A DNA stretch of 45,557 nt, taken from an uncultured Gammaproteobacteria bacterium. Its GTDB lineage: Bacteria > Patescibacteriota > Microgenomatia > CAYQLK01. Positions 5 through 40,583 of the stretch are shown piece after piece. The translations under genes and the position numbers were made by a program. Under the pieces are notes generated by a model that saw only the letters and a program-made list of their open reading frames with translations, was not told the origin of the DNA and made no database searches. The stretch covers positions 1-45,557 of the forward strand of contig CAYUKQ010000005.1 of the NCBI GenBank assembly GCA_964445355.1, read 5' to 3'. Within the stretch, counting starts at the first letter, position 1. Each line of letters begins with the position of its first letter.

Positions 5-406
5 TCAGTGCAAGATCCAGCGAACCAGACTTGCGGTGAATGAGTATACCAAAGCGGCGGCTAAAATGGTAAGGAAAAAGCTTAGGGATATCTCCGGGAT
101 GATATAACCGTTGATGTTGGTGGCCGGTGAATAAAATGGTGATACTTTGAATACTGGATACAGCATTGATAAAAAATAAAAATATACCGAAGTCAGTATA
201 AAGCTCAATAGACCAAAAAAAATAAAATTAATTGGCAGTAAAATTGTTTTCGCGATCGGACGGACAAAATAATGAGTAATAAATAACCCAATACATATAA
301 TGATAAATGTACGGGTTTCATCATCAAGTTTGATGGAATTGATGATAGTTAGCGTAATCCAGAAAGAGACAGCGACTGTAATTAGACTTCGAATGATTTT
401 TTTCAT
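5..406 (-). CDS. 4-TM membrane protein, phage-holin family IV / YvlD-like
   Basis: 133 aa, four hydrophobic stretches, RPI..L.LPIN...FGL motif typical of this family; lies 11 nt downstream of uvrC. Confidence 0.7.
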   Translation of the reverse strand: MKKIIRSLITVAVSFWITLTIINSIKLDDETRTFIIICIGLFITHYFVRPIAKTILLPINFIFFGLLSFILTSVYFYFLSMLYPVFKVSPFYSPATNINGYIIPEISLSFFLTILAAALVYSFTASLVRWILH

Positions 407-3613: not shown

Positions 3614-3670
3614 GGCAGGTATTTAGACTTAATGATAGCTAAAATCGTATAAAAAATGTATTCACCAACA

Positions 3671-6592
3671 CTAAACCAGCTCTGAGAGAAATTTGGCCGT
3701 GTGTGATTTTGTAACCTTAGCCACTTCGACGGGCATGCCTTGAGCGACTATTTCACCACCACCATCGCCACCTTCGGGTCCCAGGTCGATTATCCAGTCA
3801 GCATTTTTAATAACATCAAGATTATGCTCAATTACTACAACCGTGTTCCCCTGCTCAACAAGCCGAGAAAGAATATTGAGAAGTTTTTCAATGTCAGCAA
3901 AATGTAATCCTGTGGTAGGTTCGTCGAGAATATAAAGTGTTTTACCGGTAGAGCGCTTGGATAATTCCGAGGCTAACTTGACTCGCTGTGCTTCACCGCC
4001 AGATAGCGTCGGAGCTGGTTGTCCTAATTTGATATAACCGAGACCGACGTCAACGACAGTGGCAAGCTTGTTTTTGATTACTGGAATATTGCTAAAAAAA
4101 TCTAACGCTTCTTCGACAGTCATATCTAAAACTTCAAAAATATTTTTGTCTTTAAAATGGACTTCGAGTGCTTCTTGGTTGTACCGCTTGCCGTTACAAA
4201 CCTCACAGTCAACATAAACATCGGGCAAAAACTGCATTTCTATTTTTACCTGCCCTTCGCCTTCACAAGCTTCGCAGCGGCCACCTTTAACATTAAAAGA
4301 AAATCTGCCGGATTTGTATCCTCTGATTTTCGCTTCTGTAGTTTGAGCAAAAAGTTCGCGTATTGGAGTAAAAATCCCGGTGTATGTTGCTGGGTTAGAC
4401 CGAGGAGTTCGACCAATTGGCGACTGGTCAATCATAATAACTTTATCCAGGTGATCGGTTCCCATAACAGTAGTGTGCCCTCCAGGTCGCTCTTTGGCGT
4501 GATAGAATTTTTGAGCTAGACTTTTGTAAAGAATATCGTGAACTAATGTTGATTTTCCTGATCCAGATACACCAGTAAAACACACGAATTTACCGAGAGG
4601 AATTGATACATCGATATTTTTTAGGTTGTGCTCACTTGCGCCAATAATTGATAATTCTTTCCCATCATGAGGATTAATGAAGGGTTTAGTTTTAACTTTG
4701 ATTTTCTTTTTGTCGGATAGGTATTTACCGGTTAATGATTTAGGGTCGCGGATTATTTCGCTTGGGGTTCCACAAGAAACTATGCTTCCACCATGCTCCC
4801 CTGCTCCGGGGCCAAAATCAAAAATATAATCCGACTCCAGCATCATATCCCGATCATGTTCAACGACTAATACAGAGTTGCCCAAATCGCGAAGTTTTTG
4901 CAGTGTGCCGATCAGTCGTACATTATCCCTCTGATGCAGTCCAATGGAAGGTTCATCAAGGACATACAATACCCCAGACAAACCAGAGCCAATCTGGCTC
5001 GCTAAACGTATCCTTTGTGCTTCACCGCCAGCTAAGGTTGAGGCTGTTCTTGATAAAGACAGGTAGTCTAACCCGACGTCGATCAAGAATTGCAATCTTG
5101 AGGTAATTTCTTTAAGAATGGGAGCGGAAACCTGAGCATCACGGTGATTATGTGCGAAAATTTTTGATAGTGTCTTAAGCCATTCCAACGTATCGCGAAT
5201 TGATTTTTGCGCAACGTTGTGAATATTGAGCCCTTCAATGGTAACCGACATAGCTTCAGCCTTAAGCCTTGTGCCGTGACAAGTAGGACATGGCAATATC
5301 CGCATGAATTTCTCGATTTCCCCCCTGATATAGCCTGATTCGGTTTCTTTGTGGCGCCTTTCCAAGTTGGGAATAACACCCTCAAAGGTTGTTTGCCATC
5401 TGGCTGATTTGCCAAATCTGTTCTCTCCCTGTACATCAAAAACTTGATCAGAACCATACAATAGAAACTTACGATCTTCTTCAGAGAGCTCTTTGATTGG
5501 GGTATGAATTGAAAAGTGAATTTGTTTCGAGGCCTCATCAAGTAGTCGTGAGAACCAGGTTTCGTGCGTTGAAAGCCTAGACCAGGGTAAAATTCCACCT
5601 TGAGCGATCGTCAGATTGGGGTTAAAAACTAATTCAGGTTCAACCTCAAGCTTGGTACCGATACCAGTACAGGTGGGGCATGCACCATGGGGCGAGTTGA
5701 AAGAAAATGTTCTTGGTTCGATCTCAGGCAGAGAAATATTATCAAACGGACAGGCAAATTTTTCACTGAAAAGATGATCCTCCATTTCTGTTGGGAATTC
5801 AGGTATTTCAAAAGCACTGTCTAAAATCTTTGCAATAATTAAACTCCCCTCCGCCATCTTGAGTGCAGTTTCAACCGATTCTGATAAACGCTGTCTATCG
5901 CTGGCTGGTAAAATAAGGCGATCGATTACTGCATCTATTGAGTGCTTGTTGGTCTTGATTAAAGTAAAATCGTCCTCAATGTCCTTGATCTGGCCATCAA
6001 CTCTGACCTTAGTAATTCCACGCTTTCTTAAATCAGTAAATAATTGAGAGAACTCGCCTTTTCGATCCTTAACGATTGGCGATAGTATCAACACTCTGGT
6101 TGGAGGTTTGATTTTGGGATCGCCAAGTTTTTGAATCTCTTCAACAATTTGCGCCGCTGATTGATGTTTAACCTCTCGTCCACAACTCGGGCAGTGTGGA
6201 TGCCCAACTCTGGCAAAAAGCAGTCTTAAATAGTCGTAAACTTCTGTAATCGTACCGACTGTGGAGCGCGGATTACGTGAGGTGGATTTTTGATCGATTG
6301 AAATCGCTGGCGATAACCCGTCGATCTGATCTACGTCTGGTTTGTCCATAACTCCCAAAAATTGCCTTGCATAGCTAGATAATGATTCAACGTAACGTCT
6401 TTGTCCTTCTGCATAAATAGTGTCAAAAGCAAGTGATGATTTACCAGAACCTGATAGTCCTGTAAATACGACTAACTGGTTACGAGGAATTTGCAGTGTA
6501 AGATTTTTAAGATTGTGTTCCCGTGCACCGGACACATTGATATATTGCTGAAGTTGTTGAGTTTTTTTCGGGTTATCTTTGGTGCTGCTCAT
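3671..6592 (-). CDS. uvrA: Excinuclease ABC subunit A
   Basis: Two Walker A motifs ([16 protein letters not shown]), two LSGGEAQR-type signatures, CxxC zinc fingers, 973 aa. Confidence 0.99.
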
Positions 6593-13729: not shown

Positions 13730-14245
13730 ATGGATATAAACAATACAAACCCCCAGGACCCGGGATTGGGTTCTACACCATCTACAAGTGATGATAATAA
13801 CGGATCTGTGGTTTCTACTCCTGATCTAGGCAGTCCTGTCGGCACAACTGCGGATTCTCAGGTTCCACCTATGCCGTCTGTGCCAACACCCGCTGTTGAC
13901 TTGCCTGAAATGCCAACCGACGATAACGGTCAAGCATCAAATGTTGACGTTCCTGTGGCACCGAGTGCTGATCCAGTGATTAACCCCGCTCCGGCCCCAG
14001 AACCAGTTTCAATGCCAATAGAGACACCGACTAATGAGACTGGATCTCAGGAAAGCGGTTCAGGTTTTGATCCCGCAATGCCGATTCCGGGTACGGAAGA
14101 GGTTACTCCAAGTGCCCCTGTAATGCCATCAGAACCAGCCTCAACGCCTGCAACTGAAGCGCCAACTGTAGCACAACTCCCCGTGTCCCAGGCTGATAGC
14201 GCGGCCGAAAGTTCCACACCTGCACCAACGACAGAGAATTCTTGA
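13730..14245 (+). CDS. Pro/Ser/Thr/acidic low-complexity protein
   Basis: 171-aa ORF with almost no basic or aromatic residues; TACAGT -10-like element 6 nt before ATG. Confidence 0.75.
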   Translation: MDINNTNPQDPGLGSTPSTSDDNNGSVVSTPDLGSPVGTTADSQVPPMPSVPTPAVDLPEMPTDDNGQASNVDVPVAPSADPVINPAPAPEPVSMPIETPTNETGSQESGSGFDPAMPIPGTEEVTPSAPVMPSEPASTPATEAPTVAQLPVSQADSAAESSTPAPTTENS

Positions 14246-14277
14246 GCAAAACTCAAGATATTTCGTTTGAGTAATGT

Positions 14278-14300
14278 ACTCTGATAAAAATTATCAGAGT
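14278..14300. terminator. Hairpin between convergent genes (probable bidirectional terminator)
   Basis: ACTCTGATAA-AAA-TTATCAGAGT, perfect 10-bp stem; no clear U-tract. Confidence 0.55.
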
Positions 14301-14305
14301 CGTGA

Positions 14306-15175
14306 TTAGGTAGCGTTGGTATTACCGGTAATCAGATTATCAAGCAAATTATGTGGTGTACTTACCGATCTGGTGGTTAATGCGCCATTATCTAGCTGGC
14401 GTAATTCCGATTCGTAGGTTGATTTTAAAGTTTTGAAAATTATACCTGTGGCGATGGATTCTTTTTCAAGCGCAATTTTAAGAGCAGCTTCAATATTTTC
14501 AAAGTCGTGACCAAGATCTTGTAGTTTGGTAATTCTTTCTCGATACCATTGATATGTATTTACTTTATTAAAGGTTACACATGGCTGTAGTGCATCAATT
14601 AGCGCAAATCCTTTGTGATTAATCCCTTCGACGATTAAGTCGGTCAATTGCGCGATATCACCAGCAAACCCTCTGGAAACCAAAGTTGCGCCAGAGATAA
14701 TAGCGAGTGCAAGCGGGTTTAGTGCTACTTCTATTGCCCCATCCGGTGTTGATTTTGACTGATATCCTTTGAGTGCAGTTGGTGATTTTTGACCAGTGGT
14801 CAAACCATAAACACCATTATTGTGAATGATTACGGTAATGTCGTGATTACCGCGCATTGCAGCGAGTAAGTGATTAAGGCCTTCACCGTAGGTATCACCA
14901 TCACCAGCTACAACAATAACGTGCTGAGTGTGATTTGCAATCTTTGCTCCAATTGCTACTGGAACCGGCCTACCGTGTAAACCTTCGAAGCCGTATGCAT
15001 GCATAAAGTTGACCATGTGTCCGTGACATCCGACACCATAAACAAGAGTAACCTCGTGTGGGGCAATGTTTAATTTCGCCAATGCGTTCTTAAGTGATGC
15101 CCAGATACCGAAATCACCACAACCGGCGCACCAGTTAGGAAAACATCCTGAATCAAAGTCTTGTGGAATACTCAT
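14306..15175 (-). CDS. 2-oxoacid:ferredoxin oxidoreductase beta subunit
   Basis: WCAGCG, GVGC, TPP-binding GDGD...NNGVYGLTTGQ, QPCVTFN. Confidence 0.93.
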   Translation of the reverse strand: MSIPQDFDSGCFPNWCAGCGDFGIWASLKNALAKLNIAPHEVTLVYGVGCHGHMVNFMHAYGFEGLHGRPVPVAIGAKIANHTQHVIVVAGDGDTYGEGLNHLLAAMRGNHDITVIIHNNGVYGLTTGQKSPTALKGYQSKSTPDGAIEVALNPLALAIISGATLVSRGFAGDIAQLTDLIVEGINHKGFALIDALQPCVTFNKVNTYQWYRERITKLQDLGHDFENIEAALKIALEKESIATGIIFKTLKSTYESELRQLDNGALTTRSVSTPHNLLDNLITGNTNAT

Positions 15176-16902
15176 ATTTTTTTAATAGTTTTTTCAAAAA
15201 TTTTTGCCAGATCTCGGGCTAAAAACGGCCGACCGTCGAATCTTCTAATCCTGTATTTAGGCTGAACCCCTGTTAGTTTTGTTAAATAACTCTCCAATTG
15301 CCCAGTATAGTTGTTTTCAACGACGATCGTATTTTTGCCATCTTTTAGGTAATTAGTGAGTGATTTGATATTAATTGGATTAAGTTTGTCCATCGATAAA
15401 AAGGAGTAATTTGATTTGTCCCCCACTAATTCCAGAGCATCCAAAATTGCACCTTTGTTTGAACCGAAAGAAATAATTTTTAACTTTCCTTTTTGCGGGT
15501 TAATTGGACGGAACGGCTGGGTTTTGGAAGTAAGCAGGGATAATTTTTTGAATCTTTTTTGAGTCATTTGAATGCGGAGTTTGCCGTCTTCGGTTGATTG
15601 ACCTGCTTCGTCATGTTCATCAGAGTTGGCGGCAAAAACATGGCCACGCATACCAGGAATCGCGCGCGGTGAAATACCGCTGGCGGTTAACTGATAGCGG
15701 TGATAAGTTTTAACCTCCTTACCAGGGTTAGTGATCAATTTACCCCGATCAATGGGTATTTTTGTCAAATCAAAAATCTCAACGGTTGAATGCGACTCTA
15801 GAACCATTTTATCTGCGAGAATGATTACGGGAGTTTGATAAATATCCGCCAAATTAAAGGCTTCGACAGTAAGCCAGAAACATTCACTAATATCACCGGG
15901 GGACAAAATAATACGCGGAAATTCGCCGTGACCAGCTGAGAGTACAAACTCCAAATCTTCTTGCGCGGTCCAGGTCGGCATACCAGTTGCCGGTCCCGGC
16001 CGTTGTCCCTCAACAACAACCAATGGTGTTTCGGTAATGCCGGCTAGAGACACACCCTCGGACATTAGCGCGAATCCGCCTCCGCTAGTAGCCGTCATTG
16101 ATCTAACACCGGTAAAAGAAGCTCCAATTGCCATATTAACTGCTGAAATTTCGTCTTCAGTGTGTTTGACGACCATGTCGTGTTTTGGACCATTCTTGGC
16201 TAAAAAATGCATTAGAGCCGAAGTGGGAGTCATTGGATATCCTGAGAAGAACTTGCATCCTGCGGCGAGAGCTCCTAACGCGATTGCTTCGTTACCGCTA
16301 ATTAAAAGTTGATTTTTGCGTGAAATTTTTGGAGATTGAGTAATTTGGGGAAATTTTGTGATTACAAAATCAAAGCCATCTTTGGCGACTTTTACATTCT
16401 GAACGATAATGTTTGTACCTTTTGATGCAAACGATCGGGAAATTACGTTTTCCAATTCAACAAAGGGCAGGCCGAGTGCGGCTACAGCAGCGCCGAGTGC
16501 GGCATTATTAGCAAGCAAAGAGTCAGCATTGTTATCTGTAGCAATCTTTCGCATTGGCAAATCGATTCGCTTAATTCTCGTGGGAAGATCAAGTTCGTCT
16601 TCACTAAACATCGTCGAGTCGTAAATCACTGTTGACTTAGCCGTCAGTTCGTTAAGATGTAGCTTAATTCCATTCAAGTTAAGCGCGACAAGCACATCTA
16701 TCGTATCTTTTGGAGAACGAACAGTCTCTTTTGAAAATGTAACTTGATAAGTATTGTGACCTCCGCGGATTAATGATGGGTACTCAGCATATCCGAAGAC
16801 GCTGTATCCTAAATTACTGACAAGTGTAGCCAAAGATTGACCGGTGGTCATTACGCCTGCGCCCGCTTCACCGGCTATTTTAAAACTAATTGACTGCAAC
16901 AT
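15172..16902 (-). CDS. 2-oxoacid:ferredoxin oxidoreductase alpha subunit (gamma-alpha fused)
   Basis: GEAGAG, YPSLIRGGH, GYPMTP, EDEISA, TATSGGGFALM, QRPGPATGMPT; 4-nt overlap with the beta subunit. Confidence 0.93.
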   Translation of the reverse strand: MLQSISFKIAGEAGAGVMTTGQSLATLVSNLGYSVFGYAEYPSLIRGGHNTYQVTFSKETVRSPKDTIDVLVALNLNGIKLHLNELTAKSTVIYDSTMFSEDELDLPTRIKRIDLPMRKIATDNNADSLLANNAALGAAVAALGLPFVELENVISRSFASKGTNIIVQNVKVAKDGFDFVITKFPQITQSPKISRKNQLLISGNEAIALGALAAGCKFFSGYPMTPTSALMHFLAKNGPKHDMVVKHTEDEISAVNMAIGASFTGVRSMTATSGGGFALMSEGVSLAGITETPLVVVEGQRPGPATGMPTWTAQEDLEFVLSAGHGEFPRIILSPGDISECFWLTVEAFNLADIYQTPVIILADKMVLESHSTVEIFDLTKIPIDRGKLITNPGKEVKTYHRYQLTASGISPRAIPGMRGHVFAANSDEHDEAGQSTEDGKLRIQMTQKRFKKLSLLTSKTQPFRPINPQKGKLKIISFGSNKGAILDALELVGDKSNYSFLSMDKLNPINIKSLTNYLKDGKNTIVVENNYTGQLESYLTKLTGVQPKYRIRRFDGRPFLARDLAKIFEKTIKKI

Positions 16903-29140: not shown

Positions 29141-29187
29141 AAAAAAATGGGTGGAATCGGTATGCTTGAAGCGCCCGTGTTCCACCC
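29141..29187 (-). terminator. Intrinsic terminator ending the glycan island operon
   Basis: GGGTGGAA...TTCCACCC 8-bp stem with a long loop, followed on the minus strand by T7. Confidence 0.6.
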
Positions 29188-29231
29188 TGTGGTGGTCTGT
29201 TTGTTGACAGACAGGAATCGAGAAACCCTTT

Positions 29232-30434
29232 CTAAGGTCTTGGATCTGGCCGGATACACTGTGGAAGTGCGTTCTCGGCCGGTTTACCCAAAGGGTTGAA
29301 GCCAAGATCGGACTTGGCGGGATCAGGCAGGGTCAGGTCAACCTGCCACCAGTAGATACCGGCAATTAGCGGGGTGAAAACCTGACAAGTCGCCTGGTAG
29401 TACCGAGCTTGACCTTCGTAGTCGGCAGCGCTTTCCAGCAGGTAATTCCATGGACGCTGGTGAGCGCCTTGTCGCGGTAACACCCCAACTTCGGTAAAGA
29501 CAACCTTGGAAGGATCGTAGCCTTTTTGACTGAGATCGTCGACCCACGATTGCCAAGAAGTGGCGAGTGAGGCGACACTGGCTCCGATCGGCGCGTCCAA
29601 GGGGTAATAAGCGTCAACGGATGGGAAATCGAGCTCGGCAATAAATGCCGGAGCCAAAACGTCCCAGTTGGCTGAGTAGGTCACTTGACCTTGATAGATC
29701 ACCCTGACAGAAGCAATTAACGTCCGCCAGCGATCCGTCTGAGGCTCCAGTGACACGAACTCCGTGCCGATGTTAAGAATGGCGACTTTTTCCTCTTGCG
29801 CTAACTTGGCGTATCCAAGCATCAGACTGGAGTAGCTGTTGAACCAACTATCCAGATTGCTCGGATTTAATTGCCCCCGCCATTTACCGTCAGCAACGAG
29901 CGAAGCTTCGTCGAGGATAGGCCTAAGCATGACGGTGAAGCCTCGCTTGTGCGCCTCTCGTACAAAAATACGAATGTTCTGATCGCTTGGTGTTTTGGCA
30001 GGGTCTTGCAAGACTTCGCTAGCCCGCCAGTTGGACTGAAAGACGGGAAATACCAAACTTACGCTGTTGACGTTGAGTTCAGCAAGCCTGTCCAGCAGTT
30101 TTGGGCTTTTGTCACGAAAATCTCCCCCGTCACTGTAGACCAGAACAGACACTCCGGCTTGATAGCTGGTAGGGCCTGATCTGGGACTCGTAACTTTGGA
30201 GATCTTGGGGGTCGGAGTGGCTGTCGGATTGACAGTTGTCGTTTGCTTTGCAATTTCTGCTGTCGGTACGAACTGGGTTGGCTGAGCGGTGTTGTTAGAA
30301 ACAGGTGGCGCCGAAATTTCTTTGGCGCCACCGTCTTTGCCTCCAACAAACCAAATGGCGAAGCCGACTGCCAGACTAATTAGCAGTGCGGCTGACAGCT
30401 GAAGATCTCGCCGATTCCAGACCAAAAGGTTCAA
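29232..30434 (-). CDS. Membrane-anchored glycoside hydrolase, GH113-like (beta-mannanase family TIM barrel)
   Basis: N-terminal TM plus P/T linker; GFTVMLRPIL, LNIGTEF, TYSANWD, VDAYYPL, FTEVG motifs; AAGGAGG SD before TTG. Confidence 0.75.
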   Translation of the reverse strand: MNLLVWNRRDLQLSAALLISLAVGFAIWFVGGKDGGAKEISAPPVSNNTAQPTQFVPTAEIAKQTTTVNPTATPTPKISKVTSPRSGPTSYQAGVSVLVYSDGGDFRDKSPKLLDRLAELNVNSVSLVFPVFQSNWRASEVLQDPAKTPSDQNIRIFVREAHKRGFTVMLRPILDEASLVADGKWRGQLNPSNLDSWFNSYSSLMLGYAKLAQEEKVAILNIGTEFVSLEPQTDRWRTLIASVRVIYQGQVTYSANWDVLAPAFIAELDFPSVDAYYPLDAPIGASVASLATSWQSWVDDLSQKGYDPSKVVFTEVGVLPRQGAHQRPWNYLLESAADYEGQARYYQATCQVFTPLIAGIYWWQVDLTLPDPAKSDLGFNPLGKPAENALPQCIRPDPRP

Positions 30435-31857
30435 CCTCCTTCACCAGGCCATGTCTGGTCTTTTCCCAGAAGTGTGGTCGTGTGATGAGCTGCAATAGGG
30501 CTTTCCAAGTTGCAAAACTCAGAATTCCCCAATACAGTGGTGCCAACACCATCCACTTGATGTTTGGGTAGAGTCCTCTGATCTTGCACCCCATCATCAC
30601 GTACAGGACAAACAGAACGTTGCCGAGCGCGATTGACAGGACGCCAAGATAGAAGATCGGGAGCGGATAGAGCTGTTCGATGAACGTGGCGTTGGTGGCC
30701 TCGTAAGCGAGCGTCATGATCCAGAAGATCGGATTGACCAGCAACACCAAAGGTGTTACAGCCACGATCACTACGAAGCAGAGGAAATTGACAAACCCCA
30801 GATCACGGTACAGGTCGATCTGGTTCCTGGTGTGTACCAGAAATGTGACCATTCCCCCTTTCTTCCACCGCGAACGCTGGCGAATCAGGTTGCCTAGGTG
30901 GCTGTTAGCCTCTTCCCAGGTAACACTATCCATTAGCCTCACTTGAAGACGTCGACGGGCGATGCGGATCCCCATATCGATGTCTTCTGTCACATTGTAC
31001 GCATCCCAACCACCCAGCTTTACCACGGTATCGGTGCGGAAATGATTAGAAGTGCCACCCAGCGGGACTGGCATTCCCATTTTTCCTAACCCGGGCAGAA
31101 TGAGGTTGAAGTAGGTTGCGTACTCAGCACTGAAGAATTTGGTGATCCAGTTAGTGTACGGGTTATAGTACTCAAGCTTGGCCTGAATACAAACAACCCG
31201 CCGGCTGGACTTGCGGAAGCATGCGACCGCTTTTTTGAGCTGATCTGGTTCCGGGCGGTCTTCGGCGTCGTAAATGACGACAAACTCGCCGGTTGCCCTC
31301 TTCAATCCTTCATTGCAAGCGCGCGGCTTGGTCTTGAGAATTGAGTCAGGCATGATCAGGATCTCAAAGCACGAAGGAAGCTCACAGCTTTCAATCTCCC
31401 GGATGGTTCGACGGTCTTTCTCTTCCAAGAGCAGAATGATCTGCAATCGGTCGATCGGATAGTCGAGTTTGCCGAGATTGTCGATAAGTTTGGCTGCGAT
31501 GTTGTGCTCGTCGTAGAGTGGCACTAGAATGGTGTACCGAGGCAGAGTCGACCCTTGTATAAGGGATCGCAACTCAGCATCTGTGACCACCATCAAGGCG
31601 GACTCGAGCGATTTAGCTGTAAGCAGTCCCTTAAAAACGATGATGACGACGTAGATCAGAGTGATCGTGCCGGCCAACGTCAACAGAACTGGCATATAGC
31701 CGAACTTCAGGATAGCCGCTGCCATGATCCCAAGGATCAAGACAATGACTACGGTTTGTTTACCAGTCAGGATAACCTCTGCGGTTTCCTCTTTGGGGCG
31801 CGTCGCCAACTGGTGAAGTACACCGCGTCCATTGCGGACATCTTCAGGACTGATCAA
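30376..31857 (-). CDS. Processive GT2 glycosyltransferase (cellulose-synthase-like)
   Basis: VPLYDE, TKPRACN, YDAED, VTED, QRSRW (D,D,D,QxxRW set), flanking TM helices, C-terminal FWEKTRHGL. Confidence 0.9.
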   Translation of the reverse strand: MISPEDVRNGRGVLHQLATRPKEETAEVILTGKQTVVIVLILGIMAAAILKFGYMPVLLTLAGTITLIYVVIIVFKGLLTAKSLESALMVVTDAELRSLIQGSTLPRYTILVPLYDEHNIAAKLIDNLGKLDYPIDRLQIILLLEEKDRRTIREIESCELPSCFEILIMPDSILKTKPRACNEGLKRATGEFVVIYDAEDRPEPDQLKKAVACFRKSSRRVVCIQAKLEYYNPYTNWITKFFSAEYATYFNLILPGLGKMGMPVPLGGTSNHFRTDTVVKLGGWDAYNVTEDIDMGIRIARRRLQVRLMDSVTWEEANSHLGNLIRQRSRWKKGGMVTFLVHTRNQIDLYRDLGFVNFLCFVVIVAVTPLVLLVNPIFWIMTLAYEATNATFIEQLYPLPIFYLGVLSIALGNVLFVLYVMMGCKIRGLYPNIKWMVLAPLYWGILSFATWKALLQLITRPHFWEKTRHGLVKEVEPFGLESARSSAVSRTAN

Positions 31858-31922
31858 GACAAAGGTTCCTCCGTCCAGATTGGTTTTATGGCTGATGATC
31901 GATTGCTTTTGTCTTTTGGAGA

Positions 31923-33602
31923 CTACGGCAGTGCTGTGCGGCGGTAGATTTGGATCTGCTCGTTACTGAAAACCAGCAGAAAATGATCGTCGAGTGCAGG
32001 CGTACCATGCAGATGCTCGTATACCTTGTCGCGCTCGTTATCTGAACCCCGCATGACAATCCAATCGACAAAGTCGGCCGGATCAACAAGTGCGGGCTCC
32101 CACATTCGGTAACTACCTTCGTAAAGGATTTGACCGACGGGCAGCTTGGAAGCGACCTGAAGCTCTTCGTTGCCGTAACTTTCCATCAGAACCAGTCCGG
32201 TGTCATAGTTTCGGCTGAGCCAGTAAGCGGCATCTCTTTGCGTGACCGACAACGCCTTGTCCATATCGGCTTCCGGCTCATTAAGGGTAATGATATTACC
32301 CTGGCTGATCACCAGTGCCGAGAAGGCACAGACACCACCAACGATCACGGCACGACTAAGGACAAAGCCTTTGGTCAGATAGCCAGCGAAGATCGACAGT
32401 GGCAGAAGCATCGGCAGCGAAAACCGTACATTGTACAAGTCTCCGCTAATTTGTTCGACGTGCAAGGGGCGCTGACCAAAGTACAACGCGGCAACGAAGA
32501 ACGGGAACGGAAACAGCAAGGCGTACACCGGTGCTTTACGGATGTTGATACGGTCGCTGACAATGAAGTAAGCGAGACCAGCAATCCCGATTACCAGCGT
32601 GACGACGCCTGCCGTTTCGTAGGTCGCGATCGAGTAGGTCTTGAGCGCAATCCAGATGTTGCCTACGGACTTTTCCGCCTCACCCACCCAAAGGGAAGGT
32701 TTGGCATACTCGCCGTATTGGAAGTAGAAGGGATTATCAAAGATCTGGTAATTCCAGACCAGCCATCCGACAATGCCGAGGCTGGCTAGGAAAGTCAGAA
32801 AAAAGACTTCCCCTTCGATCCGTTCGCGAGACATGCGCTGGTTGATACAGACGACACCCCAGAGCGGAACGAAAAGAGCCAAAAGAATCCAGCCCTCGTA
32901 CCGTGTTAAGGTGGCGCAGATCAGCATTCCGGCAGTCATCAACCCGTTGACGATGTTGCCAACTGGCTGGTCGATCGCCAATGTCCACTTGATGAAGAAA
33001 TAGACACTGCCCGACAAAAACATGCACAGTGGCAGCTCTGTCATGGCAGTGGACTGAAGGTAGGTGACGTTGGGATTGCTGATGAACACCAAACTGGCCA
33101 CCACCCCTGCCCACCGTGATCCGGAAATGGTTTCGGTGATCTTGTACAGAAAGACCGAGGTCCCGACGAAAGAAAACATTGACGGAATGCTTCCCGCGAT
33201 GCCTGTTTCGTAGAGATAGTCGTTCCAGATCAGTGACTGCATCAGGAGATGCGGCAAAGGTGGCCAAACACCACCGAGTTGAGCCAATCCCGGTGTGGGA
33301 CTGTCAACAACTCGTTTGGCGATAAGAAGGTGTGATTGTGCGTCCTTGTAGACGAGGATCTGATCATTGCTGAAGTAGTAGGCAAAACTGCCTACTGACA
33401 CCAACACACTGATCAGTACGACGCCGAGCAGATAGTAGTCGTGCTGCTTGGTAACTTTGACTGACGCCAGAGCAGCTTTTGGTCGAACCGACCTTGGCGG
33501 GGTGGTTCGCACAGCGATTGCTCCAGCGTTGACTTCTGTGGTTACCAGTTTGTAGCTGGTTCGCACAAAAAATCTTGCCACTACAAGCATGGCGTGGATC
33601 AT
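31923..33602 (-). CDS. GT-C fold (ArnT/PMT-like) polyprenyl-phosphate-sugar-dependent glycosyltransferase
   Basis: Multi-TM; DAQSHL..AKRV, WPPLPH, TRYEGW motifs; C-terminal soluble domain. Confidence 0.75.
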   Translation of the reverse strand: MIHAMLVVARFFVRTSYKLVTTEVNAGAIAVRTTPPRSVRPKAALASVKVTKQHDYYLLGVVLISVLVSVGSFAYYFSNDQILVYKDAQSHLLIAKRVVDSPTPGLAQLGGVWPPLPHLLMQSLIWNDYLYETGIAGSIPSMFSFVGTSVFLYKITETISGSRWAGVVASLVFISNPNVTYLQSTAMTELPLCMFLSGSVYFFIKWTLAIDQPVGNIVNGLMTAGMLICATLTRYEGWILLALFVPLWGVVCINQRMSRERIEGEVFFLTFLASLGIVGWLVWNYQIFDNPFYFQYGEYAKPSLWVGEAEKSVGNIWIALKTYSIATYETAGVVTLVIGIAGLAYFIVSDRINIRKAPVYALLFPFPFFVAALYFGQRPLHVEQISGDLYNVRFSLPMLLPLSIFAGYLTKGFVLSRAVIVGGVCAFSALVISQGNIITLNEPEADMDKALSVTQRDAAYWLSRNYDTGLVLMESYGNEELQVASKLPVGQILYEGSYRMWEPALVDPADFVDWIVMRGSDNERDKVYEHLHGTPALDDHFLLVFSNEQIQIYRRTALP

Positions 33603-33607
33603 GATTT

Positions 33608-34090
33608 CTATGTTCCTCCAACGGTTATGGTGCGCGGCCGTCTGTGTTTGAACACAAACTTGTGACTGGCAGCAAAAGTAAGCAGCAGTCCCGCGGCAGT
33701 GCCTGAGATCAACGCTAGCGGATGATTGGCAACCAGAATGATAAGTCCGAACACGATTGTGTTGGCACCCAAACTGGTAAGAGCCATCAGGTTAAACCTG
33801 AGGAGTGAGGAAACCTCGTAAGGACTCCAACTACCCGCGCTTTTCCGGTCATGCCAGGTGATATGGTAACTTAGCAGGTAGTTAACCTGCGTCGAAACCA
33901 CAAAAGCGGTTGCGTTAACGACTGTTGCCTGCCACCACTGATCCAGACTAAAGGCCTGAATGATGGTGAAAAAGACGAGGTACTGCAGTACGGTACAGAA
34001 TGCACCGACACAGAGGAATTTGGTGATGCGCAGGTAGTTAACCTGTGCACCAGATCCACTGAGGAACGGTCTGGTTATCTCGAAAGACAC
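33608..34090 (-). CDS. GtrA-family flippase-like membrane protein
   Basis: KFLCVGAFCT, NYLLSYHITW, FAASHKFVF; four TMs; AGGAG SD before GTG. Confidence 0.85.
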   Translation of the reverse strand: MSFEITRPFLSGSGAQVNYLRITKFLCVGAFCTVLQYLVFFTIIQAFSLDQWWQATVVNATAFVVSTQVNYLLSYHITWHDRKSAGSWSPYEVSSLLRFNLMALTSLGANTIVFGLIILVANHPLALISGTAAGLLLTFAASHKFVFKHRRPRTITVGGT

Positions 34091-34344
34091 GTGGAGAATC
34101 TCCTATTATTTCTCGATTCGGTTTTTAAGGTTCGTCTGCAACCAACCTAGGGCCTATAGTTAATTCGATTTTTAGTTCGAAAGAACGATTTAGAACCGTC
34201 GGCGTGATTTTTGGATTGGTTAAAAGAGTTTGTGACAACGGGTGTTGTAATTTACTCTTATAACCTATAGTTGCAGAACAAGAATTATAGCGTGATTTAC
34301 TGTGTCTGTCCAGACACAATCGGTATTAAAGTTTTTGGGAAAAA

Positions 34345-36128: not shown

Positions 36129-36365
36129 TTACCCCTGCGGGGTAAGCTGCGGCGGAGCGAGCAGGTAGCTCGGCACTTTGAGAGTGAAAGTTCTCGATTG
36201 CCATACGCACTTGTCGCCGTCGTGACCTAGAGAAAATGCGCTGCCGGCGATCTGAACCCGTTCTTCGGCAATCACTCGACGATGAGTATTGCCATTGGGT
36301 ACCGGTCCTGCGATCAGGTCGACCTCACCGCAGGTACAGGAGAAAGAGGTGAATTCAATCTCCAC
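36129..36365 (-). CDS. Small hypothetical protein with CxC...H...C (possible metal binding)
   Basis: GTG 36365 overlaps the end of the upstream gene; start uncertain (the ORF extends to 36461). Confidence 0.45.
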   Translation of the reverse strand: MEIEFTSFSCTCGEVDLIAGPVPNGNTHRRVIAEERVQIAGSAFSLGHDGDKCVWQSRTFTLKVPSYLLAPPQLTPQG

Positions 36366-36567
36366 TTCTGATCCTACCTTCTTTGTCCAGCCGATCGTAG
36401 GCCTTAGCGACCATTTCACGGGTGATGTGAGGATTCTCGATGTGCGTATTGCCGTAGACAAAACTGATCGCTTGTGCCCGGCGCTCTTGAGGTGTCATGA
36501 CAATACCACGTGCAAGCACGATAAGTTTGTCGAGTGCGGGTGAGGACGCGTGATGTGTCAAACACAT
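36355..36567 (-). CDS. Small protein with ERRAQ.ISF.YGNTHIEN motif
   Basis: 70 aa, ATG, second gene of an SD-led operon; the motif is one I recall from a conserved small-protein family. Confidence 0.7.
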   Translation of the reverse strand: MCLTHHASSPALDKLIVLARGIVMTPQERRAQAISFVYGNTHIENPHITREMVAKAYDRLDKEGRIRSGD

Positions 36568-36584
36568 AAGTTCGGTTCAGCGTC

Positions 36585-36911
36585 CTATTCTCCGCCGACG
36601 AGGTGGCGGTTTTGGTCCGGCAAAGCACTGGCAAGCTCACTCCAGCTGGAAGGCCGAAGAGCTTCGACAGATCGGCGTTCGGCAACTTCAAGGAAAAACT
36701 CCAAGAAGTGTGCGATCTCGTCGCGGGCTGCACCATTGAAGAGATGCTTGACAAGCAGTCCGGCAACTTCGCGCCTGCCCTCCACGGCTTCAGCCTGATT
36801 TGGGGCGTGAATGTAGATTGCGGCGATGCGTGCTGCGTCCGGTGGGTACTTTCTGGCGAACTCCTGCATGGTCGCCAGAGCAGGGGGTGTTAGACCACCA
36901 TCACTGCTCAT
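36585..36911 (-). CDS. Hypothetical protein (108 aa)
   Basis: AGGAGG 8 nt before ATG; upstream TTGCAA-N16-TAAACT. Confidence 0.7.
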   Translation of the reverse strand: MSSDGGLTPPALATMQEFARKYPPDAARIAAIYIHAPNQAEAVEGRREVAGLLVKHLFNGAARDEIAHFLEFFLEVAERRSVEALRPSSWSELASALPDQNRHLVGGE

Positions 36912-36988: not shown

Positions 36989-37018
36989 AAAAAAGCGGCC
37001 ATATGGTTAATGACCGCT
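36989..37018 (-). terminator. Intrinsic terminator
   Basis: AGCGGTCAT-taaccat-ATGGCCGCT then T-run on the minus strand. Confidence 0.75.
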
Positions 37019-37030
37019 GAAAGTAGGTTT

Positions 37031-37471
37031 TTAGATGGCGATTTTTGGCTTGCGGACGCGGGCCTCCTCGCGGAAGCTGGAAACTTGCCCGTTGACCTTG
37101 AGCGCCACGTCGAACCCGTCGACATAGTTTTGGCAGCGAGTGAACAGCCAGGCGTTACGGATCAGTTCGCGGATAACCTGCTCGTACCCGTCGGCACTTT
37201 CGCTAGTCAGGATCGTCTGAAGATCAGCGACGATCATTTGACGAACGATGCTTCGTCCGAGTTCAAGTCGCACCGCATCATCGCGGCAGAGTACCAGTCG
37301 CAGCTGATGACCATCCGGCAGGATTTGGATGATCTCCAGCTTGCCTTGCGCCCGATCGGCAATGTGCGCCAACCGGCGGGCAAAGAACCAGAGCGCGTGT
37401 TCGTCGTTTTTGGGGATCCGGTTGATCTCCACCAAGAGTCGGCGAACGCTACGTGGTCTCCTGACTGTCAT
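37031..37471 (-). CDS. Hypothetical protein (146 aa)
   Basis: GGAGAGG SD, own promoter and terminator on the same strand; preferred over the overlapping + strand ORF. Confidence 0.7.
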   Translation of the reverse strand: MTVRRPRSVRRLLVEINRIPKNDEHALWFFARRLAHIADRAQGKLEIIQILPDGHQLRLVLCRDDAVRLELGRSIVRQMIVADLQTILTSESADGYEQVIRELIRNAWLFTRCQNYVDGFDVALKVNGQVSSFREEARVRKPKIAI

Positions 37472-37541
37472 GACCTCTCCAAAAAGTTAAAGTTTTGCGA
37501 TCTTATTAACCTTTTTAGGGGTTAAAAACCACAAGGCAGGT

Positions 37542-37869: not shown

Positions 37870-38574
37870 ATGATCTTTGAGCAGAGTGGATTGTTTTATG
37901 TTTATTCATTAATCAGCGATGGAAATATGTCGCTGAATTGGGGTGAGGAAAATAAAGTGATGCAAAACCGAATGCGTTTTTTGCAGTCTTGCCAATTAGA
38001 CACAAACTATGTTGTTCGGGCTAGTCTGGTTCACGGCACGGAGATCAAAGAAGTTGACGCCGATGACTGTGGCAAGGAATTTACGTGCGACTGTTTAATT
38101 ACCAAGGATCCAAAGATCGTTTTGAGCATGGTGACTGCGGACTGTTTCCCGCTTGTTTTGTACGACCGTACTAAGCAAATCGTTTCGCTGACTCATCTTG
38201 GCCACCGCGGTGTTACGGCTAAGCTTGCGGAAAAAGTTGTGGAAAGGATGCAAAACCTGGGCGCAAGCCTAACTGAGACGATCGCGATAATCGGTCCGGG
38301 AATCACAAAAGAAAGTTATGTTTTTAAGCAAGTCGATCAGATCAATGATAGTGATTGGCAGCCTTTTTTAGCCAAAACAGAGGACAGCCAAATAGCAATC
38401 GATCTGCCTGGCTATATTGTCCACCAGCTGGAAAAAAGCGGGATAAAAAAAGAAAATATTACCGACTTAAAAATTAACACCGCTACAGATCTGCGCTTTT
38501 TTTCTCACTATCGAAGTATTAAAAACAACGAAATTGAAGGAAGATTTTTGTCGGCTGTACAGATGAGGAATTAG
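37870..38574 (+). CDS. YfiH/PgeF-family (multi-copper polyphenol oxidase-like, peptidoglycan editing factor)
   Basis: VHG, TADCFP, HLGHRG, IGPGI, FFSHYR. Confidence 0.88.
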   Translation: MIFEQSGLFYVYSLISDGNMSLNWGEENKVMQNRMRFLQSCQLDTNYVVRASLVHGTEIKEVDADDCGKEFTCDCLITKDPKIVLSMVTADCFPLVLYDRTKQIVSLTHLGHRGVTAKLAEKVVERMQNLGASLTETIAIIGPGITKESYVFKQVDQINDSDWQPFLAKTEDSQIAIDLPGYIVHQLEKSGIKKENITDLKINTATDLRFFSHYRSIKNNEIEGRFLSAVQMRN

Positions 38575-39959: not shown

Positions 39960-40583
39960 TTAGACGCGGGCGGCAGCGAGTGATGCTTCGACCAGTTTAG
40001 TGAAGTCGTCAGCCATGGTGGCACGGTTGTGCCAGCCGACACTGAACATTGCAACTTCGTCCCGATCGGACAGGTCACGGCCGGCGTTCATGATCATGTT
40101 GGCCATGTCGAGCCGCTTGGCGAGCTCATCGGCAGGCATATCCTGCCTGGAGGTCATGTTGGCGGTCAGATACTCGGGGTCGCCCTCGAGTATAAACCAG
40201 CGCACGATACGGACATCTCCAGCCTCAGGACGCTCGATCAGCTCCTGCGGGACAGCTGACTGATAAACCGGATTGAGTTCGATCACAGCACCAGAGGCAC
40301 CGTTCTCGATCAATGACTGGATGTCGCTGACGCGGTAAGCGTAGTGGAAACCCTTGTTCTCGTGGTGACCCACAAGTTCTCCGGCTTCAAGGTGGCGATT
40401 GTAAACGCCTTCATCGATGCAGATCTTGGTTTCAACACCTTCCCCACGTGAGGGTCGGGTCGTTACCATTTGTGGATTGGCCACACCGAGCCGCTCAATG
40501 ACGGTTTGGGTGAGGTAATCCTTGCCAGCTCCGGAAGGACCGGAGATACCGATGACCGGGATTATTTTTCGCTTTTTATCCAT
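39960..40583 (-). CDS. Divergent guanylate-kinase-like P-loop kinase
   Basis: ISGPSGAGKD P-loop, TTRPSR, GFHYA; GC-rich. Confidence 0.75.
   Translation of the reverse strand: MDKKRKIIPVIGISGPSGAGKDYLTQTVIERLGVANPQMVTTRPSRGEGVETKICIDEGVYNRHLEAGELVGHHENKGFHYAYRVSDIQSLIENGASGAVIELNPVYQSAVPQELIERPEAGDVRIVRWFILEGDPEYLTANMTSRQDMPADELAKRLDMANMIMNAGRDLSDRDEVAMFSVGWHNRATMADDFTKLVEASLAAARV

Follow-up and report, generated by a model that had tools for sequence, protein, structure and literature searches.

We asked what a compact block of GC-rich genes for two glycosyltransferases, a small membrane protein and a glycoside hydrolase does in a stretch of DNA otherwise given over to housekeeping functions, and how it came to be there. 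Positions 1-45,557 of contig CAYUKQ010000005.1 were analysed (the 45.5-kb window in what follows), and the block occupies positions 29141-34090. It encodes a GtrA-family protein, a glycosyltransferase of the GT-C fold, a membrane-integrated glycosyltransferase of family GT2 and a hydrolase of family GH113. An earlier note on this DNA had seen in it an imported four-gene system for a beta-mannan-like surface polymer. On balance, we read it as probably a horizontally acquired operon through which a Curtissbacteria-like bacterium of the candidate phyla radiation (CPR) makes a surface or extracellular glycan by a synthase-dependent route.

Four genes between a promoter-like and a terminator-like sequence

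The four open reading frames (ORFs) lie on the minus strand and are transcribed in the order GtrA, GT-C, GT2, GH113 (Table 1). GtrA and GT-C are separated by 5 nt and GT-C and GT2 by 65 nt, while the GT2 and GH113 genes overlap by 50-59 nt. GGAGG or AGGAG stands 9-12 nt before the start codon in all four genes, and the position of this Shine-Dalgarno (SD) sequence favours, for GH113, the TTG at 30425 over a start at 30434 that would give 400 amino acids (aa). A promoter candidate, a consensus match alone, sits in the 254-nt gap upstream of GtrA. At the other end of the block a small hairpin (ccaccacagggtgg) and a ggtgga...tccacc stem are followed by a run of seven T that ends at 29141. The four genes are thus one tightly spaced unit between a promoter-like site and a hairpin with a T-run, and their GC content is 0.49-0.53 versus about 0.38-0.45 across most of the window, so that the co-directional, SD-led and GC-rich operon described in the earlier note stands. 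Its four domain assignments were likewise upheld, by Pfam for GtrA, GT2 and GH113 and by homologs together with an AlphaFold model for GT-C.

Table 1. Coordinates of the operon, its flanking signals and the adjacent genes (GC3, GC content at third codon positions)
Feature	Length	Coordinates	Strand	GC3	Basis and remarks
Promoter candidate, sigma-70-like		34284..34312	-		TGGACA-17-TATAAT; 11/12 consensus match, best in scanned region
GtrA-family small membrane protein	160 aa	33608..34090	-	0.578	PF04138, E 5e-17; hydrophobic segments; AGGAG SD at 9 nt
GT-C-fold glycosyltransferase, ArnT/PMT_2-like	559 aa	31923..33602	-	0.636	GGAGG SD
Membrane-integrated GT2, BcsA/HAS/chitin-synthase type	493 aa	30376..31857	-	0.634	PF13632, E 5e-21
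GH113-family retaining glycoside hydrolase	397 aa	29232..30425	-	0.559	PF22612; from SD-supported TTG
Terminator-like element after GH113 (putative)		29141..29195	-		Sequence read, palindrome listing
Secreted GSDH-PKD-4x DUF1349 protein	1376 aa	24928..29058	-		Pfam; directly downstream of GH113
CAP/YkwD-like secreted protein	217 aa	34345..34998	-	0.422	PF00188, E 8e-6; host-like GC3

Foreign composition of the block

Is the block at home in this genome? The host is a CPR bacterium of Curtissbacteria type, because its PFOR-beta protein shares 88% identity with one from a Candidatus Curtissbacteria metagenome-assembled genome (MAG; Microgenomates/CPR); near-identical DNA is present in activated-sludge, wastewater and bioreactor metagenomes. 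UvrB, searched against a library of 50% representatives, matched at 56% identity at best and with a single Chloroflexota label, from which no taxon could be drawn. The remainder of the window is housekeeping (UvrABC, LexA, PFOR, enolase, iPGM, PPDK and a Mur ligase). GC3 in the four operon genes is 0.56-0.64 versus 0.405 +/- 0.075 in the other 31 ORFs, about 2-3 standard deviations above their mean. An SD core, defined as GGAGG, AGGAG or GAGGA at -18 to -4 of the start, precedes all four genes of the block versus 0-1 of the 31 ORFs outside it when all candidate starts within the first 40 codons were tried, the lone doubtful case being an internal site in 37870-38574. The host genome itself appears to do without SD sequences. 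Outside the lineage the nearest GH113 and GT2 homologs come from Dormibacterota, 'Chloroflexi CF' soil MAGs, Terriglobales and Actinobacteria, in loci with a GC content of 0.59-0.72. The GC3 shift, the SD sequences and these GC-rich relatives together bear out the proposed import, and acquisition of the four-gene block from a GC-rich donor is well supported. Scans of the window revealed no integrase, tRNA or repeats marking the borders of the island, and its Rfam and tRNA scans were empty.

A synthase-type GT2

The third protein of the operon carries D116 (in PLYDE), DAED at 197-200, TED at 290-292 and QRSRW at 327-331. DAED, E291-D292 and QRSRW are invariant in 34 GT2 homologs, while D116 and T290 vary. 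Hydropathy places two N-terminal hydrophobic segments and further C-terminal ones on either side of the catalytic domain. An AlphaFold2 model (mean predicted local distance difference test score, pLDDT, 87.6) has helices at 32-83 and 321-459, and Foldseek aligns it best with BcsA, hyaluronan synthases and chitin synthases (440-540 columns, TM-scores of 0.5-0.57). In its motifs and in its modelled transmembrane (TM) architecture the protein therefore resembles a processive synthase, and by analogy with these enzymes its polymerisation would be coupled to translocation.

The GT2 is not BcsA proper, as Pfam finds no PilZ domain in it and the protein stops about 30 residues past its last TM helix. 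It falls below the cellulose-synthase cut-offs (TIGR03030, CelA, 54 bits versus 699; NF008558, 42 versus 992). Eleven NCBIfam families matched in all, the closest of them polysaccharide synthases, and all lay far below cut-off. Homologs that are 46-53% identical carry the JGI label 'glycosyltransferase XagB', which derives from a KEGG Orthology (KO) assignment; we use 'XagB-like' for this kind of GT2.

GtrA and a GT-C-fold transferase

For the second protein Pfam gives a weak PMT match alone (E 2e-4, below cut-off), while PF13231 (PMT_2) is present in its homologs. From 33 homologs AlphaFold gave a model with a pLDDT of 88 and a predicted template modelling score of 0.87; when this was compared with the PDB by Foldseek, the top 35 matches were all GT-C enzymes, ArnT being the best with a TM-score of 0.57-0.59. 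In the homolog alignment D87, just past TM1 in the first extracytoplasmic loop, is invariant, as are R234-Y235-E236, and the protein ends in a C-terminal domain of mixed helix and strand. The modelled fold and the conserved acidic residue in this loop place the protein, with the reservation due to a model, among the GT-C transferases. The first protein of the operon, GtrA, is a putative flippase for a polyprenyl-phosphate-linked sugar. Among homologs of the window GT-C, fusion to a GtrB-like GT2 is common, and GtrA may be included (GT2::GT-C and GT2::GtrA::GT-C); these fusions speak for the earlier assignment of GtrA and GT-C to a module that glycosylates with lipid-linked sugars. We also considered the 493-aa GT2 as the GtrB of a plain three-component glycosylation system and ruled this out, since relatives of the cassette carry a separate GtrB-like GT2 as well (a gene of its own in locus L088, fused to GT-C in L089-L093).

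A membrane-tethered GH113 hydrolase

The hydrolase matches PF22612 with E 4e-47 (161.6 bits versus a cut-off of 27) and aligns over 285 residues (108-392) with the structure of AaManA, 4cd6, with E 6e-24 (about 1e-23 for 4cd6/3civ). Its E225 (IGTEF) and E315 (FTEVG) align with the catalytic E151 (acid/base) and E231 (nucleophile) of AaManA; conservation across 33 GH113 homologs is complete for E315 and at least 90% for E225. The family match and the two glutamates assign the protein to CAZy family GH113, which belongs to the retaining hydrolases of clan GH-A. A single TM helix at 13-31, of signal-anchor type, is followed by a Thr/Pro-rich linker and then by the catalytic domain, which predicts that the enzyme is tethered to the membrane with its catalytic domain outside. 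A tblastn search of plasmids with this GH113 gave distant matches alone, at 23-30% identity and without context.

Recurrence of the cassette in distant phyla

We then asked whether these genes keep company elsewhere. A genome scan anchored on GH113, with a 15-sequence alignment as query, returned 79 loci, and a GT2 was counted as XagB-like at a hidden Markov model (HMM) score of at least 200. Such a GT2 lies beside GH113 in 11 of the 23 loci of the clade to which the window GH113 belongs and in none of about 55 loci of other clades; several of the window-clade loci that lack it are on short contigs. The trio of GT-C, GT2 and GH113 occurs in Patescibacteria D4M11_71, Saccharimonadia, Terriglobales, Chloroflexi CF_107 and one metagenomic contig. 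When the search was anchored on the GT2 instead, GT-C was directly upstream in all seven long contigs, often with an overlap of 1-4 nt at the stop and start codons. In five of the seven this GT-C forms a fusion with a small GtrB-like GT2, and GtrA is part of one of the five. P0143 is a natural GT2::GH113 fusion with a TM helix between its halves. Its contig, that of locus L088, encodes the complete set (GtrA, GtrB-like GT2, GT-C and the synthase::GH113 fusion).

On this comparison the invariant core of the cassette is GT-C and the XagB-like GT2, with GH113 and GtrA as frequent accessories. Co-occurrence of the genes, and the pairing of a synthase-type GT2 with an extracytoplasmic hydrolase, had both been expected in the earlier note; the recurring pairs and trios and the fusion in P0143 agree with them. 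A system peculiar to the CPR lineage is not what we find, as similar sets are present in the other Patescibacteria just named (D4M11_71, Saccharimonadia) and in several phyla outside the CPR.

Tandem GH113 paralogs are present in soil MAGs of Dormibacterota and Chloroflexi (L011, L012, L013, L016 and also L014), and in L011-L013 and L016 the tandem pair is divergent from an XagB-like GT2. L093 has two GH113 genes on opposite strands. In two Virgibacillus loci, L008 and L024 (Bacillaceae), a related GH113 is accompanied by a more distant GT2 and by a DUF2334 protein, which Pfam annotates in L008, and so the Bacillaceae offer a different, cultivable context for this GH113 clade.

A conserved partner protein next to the operon

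The list of four parts proved too short. Directly downstream of GH113 lies the gene for a secreted protein that carries a PQQ-type sugar-dehydrogenase beta-propeller (GSDH; PDB matches to the aldose sugar dehydrogenases 3a9g, 2ism and 2g8s, E 1e-32 to 1e-26), a PKD domain and four DUF1349 repeats, which are ConA-like (lectin-like) and to which no solved structure matches by sequence. Similar GSDH-type proteins flank the cassette in five further independent loci (L019, the P0087 locus, L090, L091 and L093), and a GSDH ORF also lies inside the L075 cassette. The counterpart in L093 is 41.6% identical over residues 35-1007, compared to 39.5% for GT-C and 47% for GT2. As the protein recurs beside the cassette and is conserved like GT-C and GT2, it very likely belongs to the system, judged by this conservation. 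The four genes thus stand as a unit, as first described, and the adjacent GSDH-PKD-DUF1349 protein has to be added to them as a conserved partner.

A proposed pathway and its alternatives

How might these proteins act together? In the pathway that we propose, the GT2 would use a nucleotide sugar on the cytoplasmic side of the membrane to build a beta-linked glycan, which it would export through its own TM channel. GtrA would flip a polyprenyl-phosphate sugar, which the ArnT/PMT-like GT-C would add to the glycan, its presumed acceptor, on the outer face; a GtrB-type GT2 supplying the lipid-linked sugar would act in trans. The tethered, retaining GH113 would trim or release the polymer outside the membrane, like BcsZ and CslZ, and the GSDH-PKD-DUF1349 protein probably binds the glycan via its lectin-like repeats and/or oxidises it, if the analogy with GlxA holds.

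Several observations weigh against this pathway. Four runs labelled as RNA-Seq gave a flat, low coverage over genes and spacers that is indistinguishable from DNA and so carries no information on expression. The GT2 clade contains no biochemically characterised member, and the best PDB sequence match of the window GT2 is an archaeal mannosyltransferase, PcManGT (6yv7), of minimal cellulose-synthase-like fold; as this non-synthase also matches the fold of the GT2, the fold alone is no proof of processivity. The D,D,D,QxxRW motif set, too, is found in non-polymerising GT2 enzymes. XagB-like genes elsewhere are annotated as beta-monoglucosyl-diacylglycerol synthase. A GtrB-type (DPM1-like) GT2 is absent among the 35 ORFs of the window; any GtrA/GT-C system needs such a polyprenyl-phosphate-sugar synthase, which would therefore have to work in trans and may sit elsewhere in the genome. 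GH113 is missing from the homologous cassettes L089, L090, L091 and L092, which makes it an accessory. Finally, the GSDH gene is host-like (GC3 0.424, no SD), in conflict with a simple single transfer; one possibility is that an older enzyme set was replaced in situ beside a resident partner gene.

Which sugar would such a synthase polymerise? A beta-1,4-manno-configured chain is our leading guess for the backbone, held with rather less than even confidence. The fuller version, in which the GT2 makes a beta-1,4-mannan or glucomannan that GT-C side-branches and GH113 cuts as a beta-mannanase, is a serious candidate that still falls short of probable. All GH113 enzymes with demonstrated activity cleave beta-1,4-mannosidic bonds (PMC9032380, where an X. 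campestris enzyme, AAM39996.1, is among the active ones), and the window enzyme retains both catalytic glutamates within its long alignment with AaManA. The best PDB match of the GT2 is, as noted, a mannosyltransferase. The XagB label of the homologs points the same way, as the xag-dependent biofilm of Xanthomonas is dispersed by the beta-1,4-mannanase ManA; the xag product, to which this mannanase is genetically linked, is itself an uncharacterised synthase-type exopolysaccharide (PMC3528676, PMC8042644).

In a neighbour-joining tree in which AaManA is the one characterised enzyme included, however, the window GH113 lies across the deepest split from AaManA. The other sequences of its clade are from Dormibacterota, Chloroflexi, Terriglobales, Patescibacteria, Limnocylindria and Bacillaceae, and AaManA and the sampled Bacteroidota and Bipolaricaulota sequences lie outside it. 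No member of this clade has been biochemically characterised, so that 'beta-mannan' is an extrapolation, and the beta-mannan-like product of the earlier note goes back to the family name. Moreover, enzymes of a Bacteroidetes GH113 clade whose genes also lie next to GT2 genes had no activity on any of the mannans assayed (PMC9032380), and the GH113/GT2 locus of Clostridioides difficile is predicted to make a polymer rich in N-acetylmannosamine (ManNAc; PMC7710045). The cluster is without GDP-mannose pathway genes, and no mannose-specific sugar-nucleotide genes were found among the window ORFs at large, where the sole sugar-nucleotide candidate is a generic NAD epimerase/dehydratase on the opposite strand with host-like composition.

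Could the operon build a lipoglycan instead? The GT2 would then make a glycolipid primer that GT-C elongates outside from a polyprenyl-phosphate sugar, with GH113 limiting the chain length. Besides the diacylglycerol-synthase annotations mentioned above, weak Pfam matches of the GT2 to GT21 (ceramide glucosyltransferase) fit this, as does the finding that the invariant partner of the GT2 is GT-C and not GH113. GT-C enzymes build lipoglycans, such as lipomannan, in Actinobacteria, where the cassettes are frequent. However, the AlphaFold2 model aligns over about 460-530 columns with processive synthases, the TM region included, the acceptor-binding motif QRSRW is invariant, and none of the 11 matched NCBIfam families is named as a lipid glycosyltransferase, so that we regard the lipoglycan as unlikely.

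Equally doubtful is a split into two modules that merely travel together, with the GT2 and GH113 making an unbranched polymer and GtrA and GT-C glycosylating some other acceptor. Enzymes that O-mannosylate proteins or modify lipid A do belong to the PMT_2/ArnT group, the cassette has a large secreted protein as its conserved neighbour, and the linker of GH113 is rich in Thr and Pro. The other acceptor might be peptidoglycan, a polymer like teichoic acid, or a secreted protein, for which the GSDH-PKD-DUF1349 protein and the linker of GH113 come into question; these seem to us improbable to the same degree. The adjacency of GT-C and XagB-like GT2 in every long contig, across distant phyla, would be an unusual coupling for unrelated functions.

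That the block is native to the lineage, and owes its GC and SD features to selection, for example on expression level, is very unlikely. The island does occupy the same syntenic position in relatives (GH113 81% and GT2 89% identical), other Patescibacteria carry similar cassettes, and the linked GSDH gene next door looks native. Against this, GC3 is raised by 0.2 in all four genes and is unchanged in the relative, and strong SDs stand before all four although the host appears to be SD-free. The copies in other Patescibacteria (38-53% identity) are no closer than those of Terriglobales, Dormibacterota or Actinobacteria. The same site and the same GC3 shift in the relatives mean, rather, that the acquisition is older than their split. 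Least credible, and in our view close to negligible, is a catabolic GH113 that scavenges plant or microbial mannan without relation to the neighbouring transferases, for although the characterised clade-1 GH113 enzymes are catabolic (PMC9032380), this one is membrane-tethered, its gene begins within the 3' end of the GT2 gene, it is fused to GT2 in P0143, and no transporter or other mannan-utilisation genes lie nearby.

Comparison with known systems

We return to the proposed branched synthase product and ask which described systems it resembles. Closest in logic is CslA-GlxA-CslZ(-LpmP) of Streptomyces, a synthase GT2 with an extracytoplasmic redox protein and a glycan-processing hydrolase in a monoderm envelope; the three are reported to be encoded together and to act on the same glycan (10.1101/2023.11.20.567928, PMC9040799). 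The counterparts of CslA, GlxA and CslZ in the window would be the XagB-like GT2, the PQQ-type GSDH beta-propeller protein and GH113. The redox protein is of GSDH/PQQ type with PKD and DUF1349 domains here and a copper radical oxidase, GlxA, there, and the hydrolases differ as well (GH113 versus CslZ). The Streptomyces system has no GT-C/GtrA module, and the window GT2 is distant from cellulose synthases.

With the synthase-dependent systems for cellulose (BcsA/BcsZ) and PNAG (PgaC/PgaB) the window system has in common the D, DxD, TED and QxxRW motifs, the TM channel architecture and a cognate extracytoplasmic hydrolase. According to Pfam, however, none of the four operon proteins has a PilZ, BcsB-like or deacetylase domain, and the hydrolase is of family GH113, not GH8 or GH153. 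The likeness to Xanthomonas xagABCD is in the XagB label of the homologs and in the synthase-type exopolysaccharide with its link to a mannanase; a literature search for XagC and XagD brought up nothing about their domains. In Xanthomonas the dispersing ManA is encoded elsewhere, and the regulation by diffusible signal factor (DSF) and cyclic di-GMP (c-di-GMP) has no counterpart in the window system.

A GtrA-family flippase and a GT-C transferase are shared with systems of the GtrA/GtrB/GtrC, CsbB/GtcA/YfhO and GacI-L type, for which a three-component concept of extracytoplasmic glycosylation has been set out (PMC8035078, PMC11127046). The window differs from these in having no GtrB and in its presumed acceptor, the product of a synthase GT2 and not O-antigen, teichoic acid or rhamnan. 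We know of no described system that combines three-component glycosylation with the product of a synthase-type GT2 as acceptor. Nor did our literature search bring up an account of a synthase-type GT2 firmly coupled to a GT-C module, or a paper that connects GH113 with CPR bacteria. GH113 genes beside GT2 genes have been read as glycan construction or remodelling in Bacteroidetes clade 5 and in C. difficile 630 (PMC9032380, PMC7710045), which are predictions too. The sampled Bacteroidota GH113 belong to a different clade and the GT2 near them is only weakly similar (HMM score about 120 versus 760), while in C. difficile 630 the partners are WecB and CE4, with GT-C absent. A further candidate, the GtrA-dependent 'gsf' cluster of Actinoplanes, was set aside, as its gene set is different and its transmembrane glycosyltransferase, AMIS_70410, is not of GT-C fold according to the authors (PMC13390465).

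Implications of the cassette

What would the cassette mean if the pathway holds? Tentatively, and as a possibility that we would not yet call likely, this undescribed cassette, widespread in monoderm and soil lineages (Actinobacteria, Dormibacterota/Chloroflexi, Acidobacteriota and Patescibacteria), may represent a new class of synthase-dependent pathway. In this class a BcsA/HAS-type synthase would be obligatorily coupled to a Gtr-type lipid-sugar/GT-C module and to a PQQ-type beta-propeller/lectin-repeat protein, often with a GH113. The product would be a branched, possibly oxidised, beta-mannan-like polymer of the wall or matrix, and the CPR enzyme genes would be an in-situ replacement by a GC-rich xenolog.

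The genomes of CPR bacteria are very small, and a life attached to hosts is generally assumed for these organisms; the bacterium studied here, too, is probably host-dependent. A surface-glycan system of five genes that was acquired and then retained in such a genome is therefore a candidate determinant of the CPR envelope and of attachment, although the part in host attachment or as a phage receptor that the earlier note raised is speculative. Among organisms that can be cultivated, Actinobacteria have the cassette with the obligate GT-C/GT2 pair, natural fusions and the conserved redox/lectin partner; Bacillaceae have a portion of it, a related GH113 with a more distant GT2. Its characterisation would give a physiological substrate for an unexplored GH113 clade and would probe the extracytoplasmic branching, by GT-C enzymes, of polymers made by synthases; it might also clarify the xag polymer of Xanthomonas.

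Neighbouring genes and other observations

The CAP/YkwD-like gene just upstream of the operon is conserved beside the island in close relatives, and the Terriglobales locus L019 likewise has a gene for a CAP-domain protein (13827-15671) after its cassette. It is possible, on this weak link, that the protein is an accessory of the system, or it may be there by coincidence. In the same Terriglobales locus a bifunctional ATP sulfurylase/APS kinase (3630-5261) lies immediately upstream of the GT-C/GT2/GH113 set, which hints that the Terriglobales product is sulfated.

Two further ORFs of the window have island-like GC3 and may be additional imported genes. One, at 37010-37525 on the plus strand (0.62), has no family match, and the other, at 39960-40583 on the minus strand (0.64), has a weak match to a guanylate-kinase-like P-loop (E 6e-7, far below cut-off). 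The stretch 36129-36766 has a GC content of 0.52 and contains short overlapping ORFs alone, with no Pfam, NCBIfam or Rfam match. At the edge of the window, an ORF of the Phage_holin_4_2 family (5-406, minus strand) adjoins uvrC.

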